64,000 nucleotides of DNA, taken from assembly GCF_044324785.1 (NCBI RefSeq), contig NZ_CP172127.1; one strand, written 5' to 3'. The notes beneath the pieces were generated by a model. The model made no database searches. It worked only from the letters and a program-made list of their open reading frames with translations, and was not told the DNA's origin. Positions 1 to 36,301 of this stretch are shown here, piece after piece. Every line of letters starts with the position of its first letter. Position 1 is the first letter of the stretch. Source of the DNA: Escherichia coli. GTDB lineage: Bacteria > Pseudomonadota > Gammaproteobacteria > Enterobacterales > Enterobacteriaceae. Both the position numbers and the translations under genes were made by a program.

Positions 1-90
1 TTTTTTTCGCAATTGTTTCCGCAATTTCTTTCGCGTTTTTTTTCGCAATTGTTTCCGCAATTTTTTGCGCAATTGTTTCCCGAGTTTTTG
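1..90. repeat. Tandem direct repeats (12-bp core, 36-bp higher-order unit) inside the 3' part of the edge gene
   Basis: gcaatt recurs at 9, 21, 45, 57, 69; positions 8-25 are identical to 44-61 (cgcaattgtttccgcaat). The repeats are in frame with the minus-strand ORF. Confidence 0.8.
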
Positions 91-919
91 ATTTTAGACT
101 AACACCATCGATGTCAACCGGTGTTGTTTTCAGATCTCTCTGCGCGTCTTTCAAATTTGTCTTATAGAGATCGGGCACTTTATCGGCAGATAAGTATCCG
201 GATGAAGAAATCTGGTGTGTACGCATGGGGGGCTGTTCACAAAGCATCGAGGCTATATCGTCTTTAAACTCTTTTACATTAAAGTTATCGGCATTAACCT
301 TCCCTGTTATAAACCCCGCATCGGCAATTTTCTTCTCTAATTGTTTTGTACGTTTAGAATTATGAGCGTTGTTATCATAAAACTTTTCAAGAAGGGCCCA
401 CTCCTCAAGTTGCCTTATGTGATTTTTCAACTGTTGATGATCTATTTTATATTCATGTGTACTAGAATCATTTTGATTGCAGGAGTTACAGATTTTTAAG
501 CATAATTTTCCATCAGATTTATCATCTATGGTATCAGTGAAAATATAGGACACTTCAATACTCTGCCCGTACTTATCAGACATCTCATATGACCATTGCC
601 CCGTTCGTTTCGCATTCTTAATGAATTCGATGGACTCTGCAGGACAACCATGAAGAATGGGCAGAATTTTATCAGGATGCTTAATGAGTAAAATTATTAT
701 ATTTACAACGTTTGAAAAGAAATTTTTGCCATTTTTTATTTCATCGATTTTTTCCGCTGAAATGTTTACTAAGTTTTCATTTCCGGAAATGAAAAGCAAT
801 TTGCCATGTGGGCTTTTTTTAAATTGTTCTTCTGTTTTAGAAAAGACATCCTCTTTAAAAGGTGGCAACTCAGTACCAGTAATAAACGGTTTCAATAAAT
901 TCGAATTTGAAATTGTCAT
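1..919 (-). CDS. Hypothetical protein, 5' complete and 3' truncated by the window edge (at least 306 codons); AT-rich; C-terminal part encoded by in-frame tandem repeats (ETIAKK-like)
   Basis: Manual minus-strand translation: ATG at 919-917, GGAG about 8 nt upstream, no in-frame stop through position 2 in markedly AT-rich DNA. Start of protein MTISNSNLLKPFITGTELPPFKEDVFSKTEEQFKKSPHGKLLFISGNEN; end in window RETIAQKIAETIAKKNAKEIAETIAKK. Not in the ORF track because it lacks a stop inside the window. No family recognised. Confidence 0.6.
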   Translation of the reverse strand, partial: MTISNSNLLKPFITGTELPPFKEDVFSKTEEQFKKSPHGKLLFISGNENLVNISAEKIDEIKNGKNFFSNVVNIIILLIKHPDKILPILHGCPAESIEFIKNAKRTGQWSYEMSDKYGQSIEVSYIFTDTIDDKSDGKLCLKICNSCNQNDSSTHEYKIDHQQLKNHIRQLEEWALLEKFYDNNAHNSKRTKQLEKKIADAGFITGKVNADNFNVKEFKDDIASMLCEQPPMRTHQISSSGYLSADKVPDLYKTNLKDAQRDLKTTPVDIDGVSLKSKTRETIAQKIAETIAKKNAKEIAETIAKK

Positions 920-1027
920 ATCTTTGCTCCACTACAGGGTTATCCTGGAGCATGTTGTACATAACATCATGGGCAAAGAATACCAAAAATCGCTCATATC
1001 GATCGGGACAAATATTTAACAAATTCA

Positions 1028-1071
1028 GCCCTGACATTGAGCAGCTTTTTTGCGCTGCGTAGTGTCAGGGC
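1028..1071. terminator. Nested inverted repeat between malZ 3' end and the edge gene start; possible bidirectional terminator or insertion scar
   Basis: GCCCTGACA ... TGTCAGGGC outer 9-bp perfect inverted repeat enclosing an inner GCAGC-ttttttgc-GCTGC hairpin. No clean U-tract immediately after the outer stem. Confidence 0.35.
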
Positions 1072-1106
1072 TGGTGACTAACGACGTAACAAATAAAACA
1101 GATGCT

Positions 1107-2921
1107 TTAGTTCATCCACACCGTAGCCGAAATGGCAGGCAAAGCCAGAATCCCGTCTGTCAGTTGCCCATGGCCTTCTTTGCGTTGCCATTGCACGACA
1201 TTAAGAAACGGTGACGCGGGTAGCACCACTTCACAGGCCTCGCCACGGTTGATTGCCACCAGTACACGCTGCTGATTCAGCACGCGGACAAATACCACCA
1301 CGTTATCTTCCGCATACAGCACCTGACAGCCGCCACGACGCAGCGCCTGACTTTTCTTACGCAGCGCAATCATTCGCTGGTACAACGCGAATAACGCCGT
1401 ATCCTGCTTTTCCACCTGCCAGGGGAACGGTTTACGGCAAAACGGATCGTTTTTACCATCCAGTCCCACTTCATCACCGTAATAAATGCACGGTACACCA
1501 GGCCAGGTGAACAACCAGACCACCGCCAGCGGCAGGCGCGCAATATCCCGACCGAGCAGCGTTTTAAATCGCGCAGTATCGTGGCTATCGAGCTGATTAA
1601 ACATACGTAATTGCTGTTGATGAGAAAGCCCTGCGCGGTAATTATCCATCCAGGCCATACAGGTTTGGGCGTCAATTTGCTGCGGATCATAAGAGATATC
1701 GGTGTTGGCGAGAAATCCCCACAACGGGAATGTGAAGCCGCGATAGTTCATGGCGGCATCTTCCACATCGGCCTGTAACCATTGCCGTGCATCGCCAAAA
1801 TGTTCGCCGACAATATACGCTTCCGGCTGGGTTTCTTTCGCCGCTTCGGTGATCCCAGCAACGTGCTGCATATTATTGCGCGCCCCACCCGCCTCCCCCA
1901 GCATATGCACCACATCCAGCCGCCAGCCGTCCATACTCCACGGCGCTTTCAGCCAGTGGCGGACAATACTGTCTTCCCCGCGATAAATTTCATTCACCAG
2001 ACTTTCCGACTGATAATCCAGCTTCGGCAAGCTGGCATAGCCCAGCCAGTCGAGCGCCGTGCCATCATCACTAAACGAGTACCAGTCGCGCCAGGGCGAT
2101 TCGGGGTTGTGACAAGCTCCTCCCGAGCCACGATTGTGCCTGTCAAACCAGGCATGGGAATCGCCACTGTGGTTAAACACGCCATCCAGCACCAGCCGCA
2201 TTCCCAGCTGCTGCGTATTGTGTCGCAAACGCAGCAACGCTCCATCACCGCCAAACTGCGGATCGACATGGCGATAATCCTCGGTATCGTATTTATGTAC
2301 GCTGGGAGCTTTAAACACCGGATTGAGATACAGCGCCGTCACGCCAAGTTTTTTCAGATACGGCAGTTTTTCGCTGATACCGTCCAGATCGCCGCCATAG
2401 AACGTTGATCCGCCCGCCTGCGCCGTGACCGGTTCATCCCAGTCACGCAATATGATCTCTTGTCCGGCTGCGTGATGGTAATAGACATGATCCTGTTCAG
2501 CTTCACGAGGAAGACTACGGGCGAAACGATCAGGGAAGATCTGATAAAAAATCTGATCCGCAGCCCATTGTGGGCCGATATCCGGTACATCGACGGCAAA
2601 CTGCTCCAGTCGTGCCGGCGGCATTCGGCTGAAGCCCTGCGGTGTAAACCAACGCTGGCGATCGTGCCACAGCAATTTGAAACTATAACGCCGCCGAGGT
2701 AGTCCGCTGGAGAGATCGATCGCCGCCCGCCATGCGGTAACGCCAGGCTGCGGCTGACTGCGCTGCTTATGCATCGCTACTGACGTTTCTTCGTTGTCGT
2801 GTTCTGTACGCAGCATAATGCGCTGCGGTGGGTCTTCGCCCGTCAGCCACAGTGTAATGAGCAGTTGATCTTTGCTTTGTTTAACAAATGGGGGTACCGG
2901 CAGGTGCCATGCATTTAACAT
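1107..2921 (-). CDS. malZ: Maltodextrin glucosidase
   Basis: 605-aa ORF ([22 protein letters not shown]...) recognised as MalZ; second Met taken as start to give the 604 aa I recall. Confidence 0.93.
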
Positions 2922-3079
2922 CATAATTCCCCTGTGATGAAAATCTGATCACCTTGCCATAGCCTAATGCAGGATCACTCATCATCTGAAGGATATTTGG
3001 GGGAGGAGGACGGGGGCGGATAACTTTCGGAATAGCCGGATCAGGATTTCCTCCTGAACCGGCTTACAGAACGCAAGGA

Positions 3080-16296: not shown

Positions 16297-16752
16297 TTAT
16301 TCGCTACGGCGGGCAATAATTTTTAGCGCAGCAATATTATGCGTTTTACGCCGTAACTGATCTAATCGTCTCATCCCTATTCGCCTGTCAGCAGCACGCA
16401 GAATATTCACTAACCCCCATTTATCGCTGGTAAATTGTTTTGTTAACAGCTCCGCTTTTGGAGTATCAATATATTCACGCAATAAATCTGAAATTGAACA
16501 AATATCCGTCAGGTATGGATACCAGCAAGTTTCACCGTGAAAATTACGCACTCCACCGTTACCTGCAATAAAGTCTTTCGGGTAATCCCAGATCACGTTT
16601 TTATCCAACGTGATCCAATAACGAGGTAAATCGGTGCTTCCACCATTTTGGCTGCGCATGGGATAACGGGTACAGTGAATTTGCAGGTTGATCGTTGGCG
16701 TCAGTATGTCATAGATCTCCCGTTGTAACTTGCTCCATGGGCGTTGTGTCAT
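16297..16752 (-). CDS. Hypothetical 151-aa cytoplasmic protein, Trp/Tyr-rich, downstream partner of the 762-aa secreted protein
   Basis: ORF MTQRPWSKLQREIYDILTPTINLQIHCTRYPMRSQNGG...; no signal peptide or hydrophobic segment; its ATG overlaps the upstream gene's stop (ATGA at 16749-16752); AT-rich; no family recognised. Confidence 0.65.
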   Translation of the reverse strand: MTQRPWSKLQREIYDILTPTINLQIHCTRYPMRSQNGGSTDLPRYWITLDKNVIWDYPKDFIAGNGGVRNFHGETCWYPYLTDICSISDLLREYIDTPKAELLTKQFTSDKWGLVNILRAADRRIGMRRLDQLRRKTHNIAALKIIARRSE

Positions 16753-19037
16753 TGTTTTTCCTCAAGCCGGTGACGCGCTTCACTGCGAATTTTCCGCGTT
16801 GCCCCTGTTTTCACTAAATCACGTAACAGCGAAAGATCGGGTTGATCGACAAATAAGAGTAATGATGGATCCTCTTTTAACCACGTCGTTTTCACATCGG
16901 CAGCCAACTGTGGATTATTAATAACCAACGCCCGATCCTGAGGCTCAGTCAATGTCGTTAACAAAGACGCCGGGGTATGTGCGTTGCGCAATGCCGTTTG
17001 GCGCAAATGATCATTGCGACTTTGCAGCAATGCACGCCACCATTCATCATCTGATTTATCTTTTATCGTAGCCAGTTCCGCAAAAATATCGCTATCCTCA
17101 CTGTTCCAGCGGTGTAGTCCTCTTTCACTTTGCCTACGGGTGCTATTTTTCATACTGACAACAGCCAGCGCCCAGTCAGAGTTGAAGCGATACTGTTGAT
17201 CGAGTTTGTTGATAATTCCGGAAGGTAAATCTTTATTATCAAATAATTGGTTACGCATTCGATAGCGGTATTCAGCGGGTAAATCAACCAGTAAATCAAT
17301 GGCATTATTTAACATCTCTTCGTCAACAACACCATTATCAATCAGCGCCAGCTGTACTTCATAGACTTGCTCTTGATCTTCTTGCCGTTTGCTCATCATT
17401 AAATTTAATGTGCGTTGCCATAATTGTTTTTTATATTCCAGCGGCAACAATTTATCGCGTGCCAGCTCATCCCAGACGGAGGGAATATCATGCTGAGTGA
17501 GTAGATAACTAATCACTTCCTTCGACGTCAGATAACGCGCACCTTCGCGTAAATTGTGCACATCTTCCTTTGCCAGAGACAGTTGACGCGACTCAGGTAA
17601 CGCTATCAATAACGCCTTCACGATATTTTTATTTTCTTTATTATCCAGATACATTTGTTCTGCGATACGTTCAATATCCTCTGTACGCAGGGTTGCTGAC
17701 AGTTGAGTAATTTTTAGTTCAGTAAGCGTCCGGGCTAATGCTTCACGAACTTTGAGTGATTTATCTTTACTCAACATCACAGCTTGTTGTGCGATTAAAT
17801 CTGCTCCGGTAATTCTTTCGCGTAACTCCGGGTCTTCACTATTTATCAACTCATCGACCACTGCAGTCGGAACCAGCCAGGCGTAATCGTAATGGCTAAT
17901 TAATGTCTTGCGCACACTGAGAAAAGGGCTATGACTTAATGCCGCAACAATATCAGGAGAAAGATTATCCTGTCTGGCCTGCTCCAGCTGTACGCTCTCG
18001 ACGGGTACAGACATTAATTTTTTATTCACTTCGGCGGAAATGTTACTGTTTTTAACCAGCCCTCTGGCAACAGCTTCATCTTTAATTAATTCATCGGTAA
18101 GCAAATGCATCTGTTGAGCGGGCCAGGACTGCGCCATCGATTCACGCGTCTGGTCATCGGGGTGCTGTAGCAGTTGCAGCATAACGGCGGTTGACAAACT
18201 TTCTATATGAGTCAGAAAACGTGCCACCAGTGGATCTTCATGCTTTATTTTATCCGCAGGGAAATTATCGAGTTTCCCCGTTTCAATCCATTTTAATTTC
18301 TCATTAATTTCAGGAGCGGCTTTATCTCGAAAAAGAGGTAAACCCTGAACGATATTGTCTGCGACGCTGTCATAGTCAGGATACGCATTGGAAATATTAT
18401 CGGTTTCGATTTCACTATGATCATAAAGATTAGGCGTCACCAGTGAATAGGCTTTTTGAATATTCTCATCCCAGTTATATTCTTCACCACTTCCATCTTC
18501 ATTGATATAAAATTCAGCTTTAATGACTTCAAATTGCGTTGCTTTATCGGAAACAATAATGCCTCGCGCACTAATTCCCTTCATCACTTCAAAGTTATGA
18601 TCATTGTAATCAGCATAAACTAAACCTTTCGCTGTCATCTGTCCTTTGACATACGCGAAATCATGATTAATAAAGTTATCGACAATAACATTACCTAATA
18701 CAATCAGATGACCATTACCTGACAGATAATCATCATAATCGCCGGAAATCGTTAAATTACCGTTCACCACCAGTTTATTTTGATTGCTGAAGTTAGCGGG
18801 TAATGATAGGTCACCATTATGATAATACCAGCGGATATTATCTTTTAGCATATAAGCAGCTTCCATACTATCGTCGGTTGCCGCTTTAACCACGTTGCGC
18901 TCATCTGCCGTCATAAGATGAAAGTCAGAGGTGATAAGGTCCTCGCTACTGATCCACTCTGTGGCACATGCATTGCCAGTCATAAAAAACACGACCATAC
19001 AGATGACCAATATTTTAATTCTATTCATAATCTTCAC
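16749..19037 (-). CDS. Hypothetical 762-aa exported protein with Sec signal peptide, N-terminal Gly/Asn-rich probable beta-rich segment and C-terminal helical (HEAT/LRV-like) repeats
   Basis: N-terminus MKIMNRIKILVICMVVFFMTGNACA has a basic n-region, hydrophobic core and Ala-X-Ala-like cleavage site. The C-terminal half shows recurring D/P...LR...A...L patterns (SEDPELRERITGADL, SLKVREALARTL, DHLRQTALRNAHTPASLLTTL). AT-rich relative to its flanks. Not recognised as any K-12 protein. Confidence 0.7.
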   Translation of the reverse strand: MKIMNRIKILVICMVVFFMTGNACATEWISSEDLITSDFHLMTADERNVVKAATDDSMEAAYMLKDNIRWYYHNGDLSLPANFSNQNKLVVNGNLTISGDYDDYLSGNGHLIVLGNVIVDNFINHDFAYVKGQMTAKGLVYADYNDHNFEVMKGISARGIIVSDKATQFEVIKAEFYINEDGSGEEYNWDENIQKAYSLVTPNLYDHSEIETDNISNAYPDYDSVADNIVQGLPLFRDKAAPEINEKLKWIETGKLDNFPADKIKHEDPLVARFLTHIESLSTAVMLQLLQHPDDQTRESMAQSWPAQQMHLLTDELIKDEAVARGLVKNSNISAEVNKKLMSVPVESVQLEQARQDNLSPDIVAALSHSPFLSVRKTLISHYDYAWLVPTAVVDELINSEDPELRERITGADLIAQQAVMLSKDKSLKVREALARTLTELKITQLSATLRTEDIERIAEQMYLDNKENKNIVKALLIALPESRQLSLAKEDVHNLREGARYLTSKEVISYLLTQHDIPSVWDELARDKLLPLEYKKQLWQRTLNLMMSKRQEDQEQVYEVQLALIDNGVVDEEMLNNAIDLLVDLPAEYRYRMRNQLFDNKDLPSGIINKLDQQYRFNSDWALAVVSMKNSTRRQSERGLHRWNSEDSDIFAELATIKDKSDDEWWRALLQSRNDHLRQTALRNAHTPASLLTTLTEPQDRALVINNPQLAADVKTTWLKEDPSLLLFVDQPDLSLLRDLVKTGATRKIRSEARHRLEEKQ

Positions 19038-33379: not shown

Positions 33380-36301
<2,922 letters not shown>

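Follow-up and report, generated by a model that had tools for sequence, protein, structure and literature searches.

An acquired, Escherichia coli-restricted orphan gene between malZ and acpH

We analyzed a stretch of 64,000 nucleotides (nt) of Escherichia coli DNA (assembly GCF_044324785.1, contig NZ_CP172127.1), hereafter the window, whose first kilobase has the lowest guanine–cytosine (GC) content of the entire sequence and carries the 5′ part of a gene without known relatives, here called the orphan gene. Minus-strand translation from an ATG proceeds through 306 codons to base 2 without a stop, and a GGAG motif is located 7 nt upstream of this start codon. An in-frame TAG at 934–932 makes the ATG the earliest possible start. 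GC content is 0.32–0.40 over positions 1–1050, compared with 0.51–0.58 in the adjacent malZ. A first reading of the window, made from its letters and referred to below as the original prediction, had described this frame, its ribosome-binding site and its AT richness relative to malZ, and had attributed its absence from the list of open reading frames (ORFs) to the missing stop codon. The sequence agrees on all these points, as the list omits ORFs running off an end. The last ~160–200 codons, the 3′ end and the poly(A) tracts discussed below lie beyond the window edge and are known from orthologs. Closest to the window copy is the allele P0002, which is known from raw-read assemblies only, is 99% identical across all 306 residues and is intact at 489 amino acids (aa). 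Extension into a pseudogene, considered in the original prediction, is therefore not what this nearest allele shows; frameshifted copies are common in other lineages.

The full gene in strain F2_81 comprises 1,518 bp and encodes 505 aa annotated as 'hypothetical protein'. It is situated between malZ and acpH, with acpH beginning 20 bp beyond its stop codon. The ortholog in the O157:H7 strain Sakai, ECs_0454 (ECs0454; NP_308481.1), has 481 aa, and ortholog lengths range from 466 to 505 aa. ECs_0454 and the RefSeq orthologs represent the same gene at the same malZ–acpH locus as the window copy, with 92–98% DNA identity and allelic differences only (repeat copy number, hypervariable patch and poly(A) state). 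In K-12, acpH follows directly beyond malZ, as the original prediction had stated, and the convergent stop codons of the two genes are 4 bp apart. When occupied and empty junctions were aligned, we obtained one clean indel of ~1,720 bp between the malZ stop and the CGTT preceding the acpH stop, and this junction alignment contained no boundary repeats or duplications at the insert ends. No integrase, transposase, tRNA, direct repeat or defence gene was detected near the insert, and the 9 kb flanking it to each side in carrier loci are free of mobility genes. Because the single clean indel holds one gene only, the insert is a stand-alone single-gene segment and not an island edge, as had initially been proposed. 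Instead of integrase or defence-associated genes, its neighbours are malZ and acpH. Coordinates are collected in Table 1.

Table 1 Features at the start of the window, covering the orphan gene, its leader and the malZ flank
Feature	Position	Strand	Basis or content
Orphan gene, 5′ part, 306 codons	1..919	(-)	N-terminal domain (aa 1-275) and start of repeat
Start of in-frame 12-bp tandem repeat, tetrapeptide units KIAE/TIAK/KNAK	1..89	(-)	Tandem Repeats Finder, period 12
Cys cluster C140-x3-C144-x2-C147, invariant in ortholog alignment, spotted by eye	479..502	(-)	Sequence and alignment
Start codon ATG (919-917) and Shine-Dalgarno GGAG (930-927)	917..930	(-)	Read from sequence
Non-coding leader of insert, 187 nt	920..1106	(-)	One copy in each of the 1,126 carriers and in no other genome
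Hairpin, 11-bp GC-rich outer stem and 5-bp inner stem	1026..1073	(-)	RNA fold
malZ (maltodextrin glucosidase), conserved flank; stop (1107-1109) is the insert boundary	1107..2924	(-)	ORF list, orthologous-locus annotation, junction alignment

The first 1,110 bases of the window matched 1,126 of 5,426 complete E. coli genomes at 90–98% DNA identity, and all these matches were single-copy, chromosomal and adjoining malZ. A K-12-like empty 4-bp junction was contiguous in 4,295 genomes of the same set. Since essentially every genome belongs to one or the other class, the locus exists in two states, and the orphan gene is a biallelic presence/absence polymorphism found in ~21% of complete E. coli genomes. 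This comparison of occupied and empty junctions, suggested in the original prediction, upheld its notion of an accessory, AT-rich and acquired gene, while 'strain-specific' proved too narrow for a gene of this frequency. Carriers include O157:H7, O145, O55:H7, MS 69-1, pig enterotoxigenic E. coli (ETEC) and Shigella dysenteriae. Among loci anchored on acpH, E. albertii and three further Escherichia lineages outside E. coli have the tight 4-nt junction. The empty junction is therefore ancestral, and the orphan gene was gained within E. coli. Across the family, the malZ–acpH junction measures 4–25 nt in Escherichia, Siccibacter and Pseudenterobacter, while Salmonella, Citrobacter, Enterobacter and others hold 0.8–4.9 kb of unrelated content there. 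Such unrelated content at the same junction in other genera suggests a recurrent insertion site. Salmonella arizonae, Leclercia and some Citrobacter have junctions of ~0.8–1.6 kb, and many members of Enterobacter, Buttiauxella and Phytobacter have junctions of ~4.1–4.9 kb; malZ and acpH are not neighbours in many loci of Citrobacter and Klebsiella.

To evaluate coding, we used eight alleles from BLAST matches, picked regardless of intactness and including frameshifted copies. They differ by at least 154 substitutions, none of which is a nonsense change (P≈4.4e-4, calculated from the ~4.9% of possible substitutions that create a stop). In a spectrum-matched simulation for one allele pair, the ORF stayed open in 41 of 5,000 runs. 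Across the full gene, the longest open run in each of the remaining five frames is 42–108 codons, versus 505 for the gene itself. Taken together, these three results identify the orphan ORF as a genuine protein-coding gene that is kept open by selection. By codon position, GC content is highest at position 1 (0.42) and amounts to 0.31 and 0.33 at the others. An antisense ORF at 657–1019 (plus strand) was rejected as a gene on account of its closure in the Sakai allele.

Selection varies along the sequence. The pooled ratio of nonsynonymous to synonymous polymorphism (pN/pS) is 0.74, with pairwise nonsynonymous to synonymous divergence ratios (dN/dS) of 0.2–2.0. By segment, pN/pS is 0.57 for codons 1–100, 0.80 for codons 101–200 and 0.69 for codons 201–275, rises to 1.19 in the repeat (codons 276–345), falls to 0.46 in codons 346–400, and reaches 1.68 and 1.74 in codons 401–420 and 421–440 before dropping to 0.27 in codons 441–505. 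The peak contains a hypervariable patch (codons 401–418) in which F2_81-type alleles and the rest differ at about half of the nucleotides, and codon 411 carries L, S, C and T. Because the leader and the flanking genes diverge by 2.3–3.0%, the orphan coding sequence is an outlier only in amino-acid changes.

Queries for the family searches were the partial and full-length proteins, the individual domains and a profile of the orthologs. Pfam contained no match at E<=0.001, the best being DUF2252 (i-E 0.008) in the repeat region, and nothing over the N-terminal domain even at E<=10. NCBIfam returned 0 families, whether queried with the full-length protein or with the domains one by one. The sole PADLOC match was Cas7e (E=0.0084) inside the low-complexity repeat, which disappeared in the domain-wise search, and the sole PHROGs match was phrog_31618 (E=0.002-0.005 over 32 aa), a family of unknown function. 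A PDB sequence search yielded no significant match. All weak family matches fall in the low-complexity repeat. When phmmer was run against 1.84 billion cluster representatives, only one full-length cluster and fragments of the same gene were recovered. The protein was found in none of the representative genomes of other species (one per species), and the phage search gave no homolog; two apparent 'plasmid' matches were rejected as mislabelled 4.9-Mb chromosomes. In agreement with the first reading, which knew no K-12 match for it and named no family, the protein belongs to no known family and, as far as these searches reach, has no relative outside Escherichia/Shigella. Orthologs are named 'hypothetical' or 'uncharacterized' throughout the databases (for example, WP_096220370.1 and WP_000155934.1), and AlphaFold models are of too low confidence for use.

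The orphan protein is predicted to be soluble, with ~470–505 aa in three parts. Neither a signal peptide nor a membrane helix was detected in it (maximum hydropathy 1.56). The N-terminal region (aa 1–275) begins with 16 residues, MTISNSNLLKPFITGT, that are rich in Ser, Thr, Asn and Pro and include zero acidic residues. This N-terminal sequence, MTISNSNLLKPFITGTELPP, loosely fits the polar, non-acidic pattern of the first ~20 residues of type III effectors, a feature that is not specific. Further downstream are the Cys cluster listed in Table 1 and a WxxxE motif (W174-x3-E178), spotted by eye, that is invariant in the ortholog alignment. The CX3CX2C spacing at aa 140–147 brought a radical S-adenosylmethionine enzyme into consideration, but this candidate was rejected for want of a PF04055 match, and no zinc-finger Pfam match covers the cluster. 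Membership in the WxxxE effector family (Map / IpgB / EspM / SifA) was likewise rejected, as the N-domain lacks any Pfam match at the relaxed threshold given above. The second part, the repeat region (aa ~276–345), consists of Lys/Glu/Ile/Ala tetrapeptides, is predicted to be helical and varies from 30 to 66 aa among strains, with ortholog lengths stepping by 4 aa and many repeat variants. The C-terminal domain of ~155 aa includes the hypervariable patch, which taken broadly spans aa 401–440, and ends with the 65 residues that are the most constrained of the protein.

Many database orthologs end at ~322–344 aa, and their altered tails exactly fit +1 or −1 shifts at one tract. This tract, G-A7-C in the codons GAA AAA AAC, is located directly after the repeat and has the A7 state in intact alleles. 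A change to A8 generates the terminal sequence EKKQERNKS of P0172, which occurs on 937 contigs of O145:H28, while A6 generates the terminal sequence EKTRKKQILRIILS of P0170, P0171 and P0142, which differ in allelic background. At a second tract, a change from A8 to A7 produces the ending EEQKN in P0169 and P0173, and the truncation of P0168 is accounted for by a 4-nt slip. At the DNA level, we located A8 in UTME-3 and in O145 RM11626-C1 and A7 in O145 RM12275-C1, and this one A is the sole difference between the two O145 strains. Removing one A reopens both frameshifted copies (UTME-3 and RM11626-C1) to the normal stop. The C-terminal domain is thus switched off repeatedly, by events that are recent or reversible. 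A homopolymer tract within an ORF that has independent +1 and −1 variants in natural isolates, as seen here, is one hallmark of a contingency locus; for another, frequent and reversible switching within a clone, the two O145 strains give a possible hint. Read in frame as GA A_AAA_AAC, the tract has the canonical X_XXY_YYZ form of a −1 slippery heptamer (F2_81 L001:10187-10195; equivalent sites in loci L004, L005 and L090). Ribosomal or transcriptional slippage at this heptamer in intact alleles would give a truncated isoform of the A6 type; only a weak 5-bp stem, spotted by eye, lies downstream.

It is firmly supported that the insert carries a real, horizontally acquired, E. coli-restricted orphan gene with a presence/absence polymorphism. 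For its function, we tentatively favour a fast-evolving protein of antagonistic or fluctuating interactions with the C-terminal domain as its active module. Its partner in such an interaction would be a host, a phage or a competing cell. On this view, the C terminus would provide an active or recognition module mounted on a repeat spacer of variable length, and +1 or −1 slippage at the A7 tract following the repeat would lead to repeated loss, and perhaps regain, of the expression of this module. We base this reading on the xenogeneic base composition, the modular architecture, the variable spacer, the constrained C terminus beside a hypervariable patch and the on/off frameshifts with an intact downstream frame. 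Within it, a delivered effector or toxin-like protein is weakly preferred over anti-phage defence. A more elaborate version, which we consider unlikely, states that this E. coli-specific protein of unrecognisable fold is a delivered effector or a phage- or competitor-recognition module, that the 12-bp repeat tunes the reach of the C-terminal hypervariable domain and that poly(A) slippage toggles its expression, making it an undescribed contingency-type interaction gene of O157:H7 and other lineages.

A number of observations weigh against an interaction gene. Neither homology nor fold nor neighbourhood indicates an activity or a partner, and the locus tag appears in no searchable paper, the O157 literature included. 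The gene is missing from 79% of E. coli, and carriers are also found among commensal, extraintestinal pathogenic (ExPEC) and pig strains without the secretion system of the locus of enterocyte effacement (LEE). With seven A residues, the tract is shorter than a genuine contingency switch would lead one to expect, chance alone should produce such tracts in a gene rich in Lys and AT, and homopolymer sequencing error could account for A7 in one long-read assembly and A8 in the other. As a 12-nt unit yields in-frame repeat indels mechanically, these were not counted towards selection. Lastly, a pN/pS near 1 together with repeated inactivation is equally expected of a weakly selected gene that is being lost.

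This last point leads to the chief rival, a somewhat doubtful account in which the orphan gene is a dispensable xenogene in slow decay that was acquired once, does little or nothing today, drifts nearly neutrally and is lost piecemeal by frameshifts at mutational hotspots, deletions and recombination with the empty allele. It accounts equally well for the high pN/pS, with many pairwise values at or above 1, and for the frameshifts, which comprise at least six independent types, including the one near-fixed in O145:H28 (937 contigs). A deletion in one O55:H7 strain that takes away the malZ 3′ end together with the start of the orphan gene, the absence of the gene from most genomes and the lack of a reported expression or phenotype in the searchable literature also accord with it. 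Decay accounts poorly, however, for zero nonsense changes among at least 154 (P≈4e-4) and for the constraint on the C-terminal 65 codons (pN/pS 0.27) and on codons 1–100 and 346–400 (0.46–0.57). Frameshifted copies moreover lack secondary lesions, and most sampled alleles are intact across diverse lineages.

A specific form of the interaction reading, in which the protein is a type III-secreted effector of the LEE or of the second E. coli type III system (ETT2), is improbable in our judgement. Here, the polar N terminus would act as the secretion signal and the C-terminal domain would function in host cells. Such an effector would suit an AT-rich orphan that is confined to E. coli/Shigella and has O157:H7, O145, O55:H7 and S. 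dysenteriae among its carriers, as well as the Ser/Thr/Asn/Pro-rich, non-acidic first 16 residues, the lack of a Sec signal and membrane helix, the internal repeat of variable copy number, which resembles that of some effectors, and the invariant WxxxE at aa 174–178. WxxxE, however, is short and readily matched by chance, and N-terminal composition is weak evidence. Pfam, NCBIfam and PDB searches revealed no similarity to effector families, and the gene resides outside prophages, pathogenicity islands and the LEE, has no chaperone gene and no phage homolog, and occurs in carriers without the LEE, for example, pig ETEC and ExPEC-type isolates.

Still less probable is a single-gene anti-phage defence or abortive-infection protein, one of the functions that the original prediction had raised. 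A defence role would fit an accessory gene whose presence varies at a conserved junction, where other genera carry 0.8–4.9 kb of differing content, and would also fit its fast evolution, hypervariable patch and frequent loss. Against this stand the lack of a credible PADLOC match (Cas7e in the low-complexity repeat only), of a recognisable nuclease, ATPase, TIR, SIR2 or other typical defence domain and of defence-island neighbours. A chance open frame in AT-rich non-coding DNA, in keeping with the missing homologs and domains and the low-confidence structure predictions, is effectively refuted by 505 codons in DNA of 36% GC versus at most 108 in the other frames, by a frame free of nonsense changes across alleles ~5–8% apart, by a proper ribosome-binding site and start codon, and by the GC peak at codon position 1.

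EspF and TccP/EspFu, repeat-containing type III effectors of attaching/effacing E. coli, are encoded by lineage-restricted AT-rich genes and have polar N termini, no Sec signal and strain-variable internal tandem repeats. The orphan protein resembles them in its lineage restriction, AT-rich gene, lack of a Sec signal and variable repeat, and loosely in its polar N terminus. The EspF and TccP/EspFu repeats, however, are ~47-aa proline-rich modules with known host ligands, and their genes lie in the LEE or in prophages, whereas the orphan protein has a 4-aa Lys/Glu/Ile/Ala unit, is encoded by a stand-alone chromosomal insert and lacks sequence similarity to them. At contingency loci of Haemophilus, Neisseria and Campylobacter, 1-nt changes in an intragenic mononucleotide run toggle the frame. 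The orphan gene shares with these loci the natural +1 and −1 variants and the intact downstream frame; it differs from classic contingency switches in its shorter tracts (A7, and A8 at the second site) and in that the N-terminal two thirds of the protein would still be made. The A7 pattern may also be a plain mutational hotspot in a Lys-rich gene. As a genomic element, the insert recalls the 'O-islands' or 'S-loops', small strain-specific E. coli segments, and AT-rich xenogeneic genes, which are typically silenced by H-NS. It is similarly short, AT-rich (GC 0.36 versus 0.52), located at a conserved backbone junction, free of mobility genes and variably present, but in contrast to most genes of such segments it encodes a protein without any homolog outside the species.

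In genomic terms, the locus is ordinary: a small, AT-rich, strain-variable insert encoding an ORFan that has been annotated as hypothetical since the first O157 genomes. What is new is how strictly the gene is restricted taxonomically, that it was gained at a convergent junction of 4 bp, that selection on it is mosaic, and that it has a repeat of variable copy number and a frameshift hotspot at poly(A). Major pathogens (O157:H7, O145:H28, O55:H7 and Shigella dysenteriae) and about one-fifth of E. coli have the gene, yet it has remained nameless. If selection, patch and frameshifts indeed reflect an interaction with hosts, phages or competitors, the gene would offer a new handle on E. coli ecology and, through presence/absence, repeat length and A6/A7/A8 state, a cheap typing marker. 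If it is merely decaying, it would provide a clean natural example of a horizontally acquired orphan that entered a tight convergent junction and has since been eroding. In both cases, the gene is one among many uncharacterised accessory genes and no anomaly.

The remaining observations concern the surroundings of the gene. The leader of the insert presumably holds the orphan-gene promoter; a sigma-70 consensus scan of positions 920–1106 found no site on the orphan-gene strand. Unusual conservation of this leader was considered and rejected, as its divergence of 2.3% approximates that of the flanking genes (2.8–3.0%). The hairpin in the leader has a folding energy of −33.8 kcal/mol (z = −4.5), and 0 of 200 shuffles fold as well. 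It starts 34 nt past the malZ stop and within the insert, and K-12, with 4 bp between the stops, is devoid of such an element. The hairpin is a possible malZ terminator or insulator; Rfam revealed no RNA family at threshold anywhere in the window. With regard to a possible import with diverged flanks, carrier flanks display only a mild rise in differences beside the junction. The last acpH codon and stop read CTC TGA in carriers versus TTA TAA in non-carriers; at the edge of the insert, 6 nt of the acpH 3′ end thus contain three changes that are synonymous or fall in the stop. These differences suggest either two old junction haplotypes or an exchange tract reaching into acpH. In E. coli O55:H7 USDA5905 (L009:1540-3280), the deletion removes the malZ 3′ end along with the 5′ part of the orphan gene, and the resulting malZ–orphan fusion remnant adjoins an intact acpH.

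Beyond acpH–secF, the two carrier genomes examined for this region, F2_81 (L001:17018-17534) and Sakai (L003:16258-16774), contain a parDE-type toxin–antitoxin pair between secF and yajD that is not known from K-12. The backbone of the window itself (malZ, proY and brnQ) reaches no more than 98.6% identity with any of the 5,426 complete E. coli genomes, indicating that its lineage is poorly represented among them. Elsewhere in the window, a second AT-rich ORF (16749–19037, minus strand, GC 0.40–0.43, 762 aa) lacks an NCBIfam match and has a C-terminal DUF2773 domain (E=1.8e-41). No kinship between this ORF and the orphan gene was found, and we take it to resemble the full-length form of the gene left in K-12 as the ykiA remnant. 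Finally, a 969-aa ORF in a stretch of lower GC (33392–36301, minus strand) contains the autotransporter beta-barrel domain TIGR01414 (E=9e-87) and presumably corresponds to the gene whose disrupted K-12 form is yaiT.

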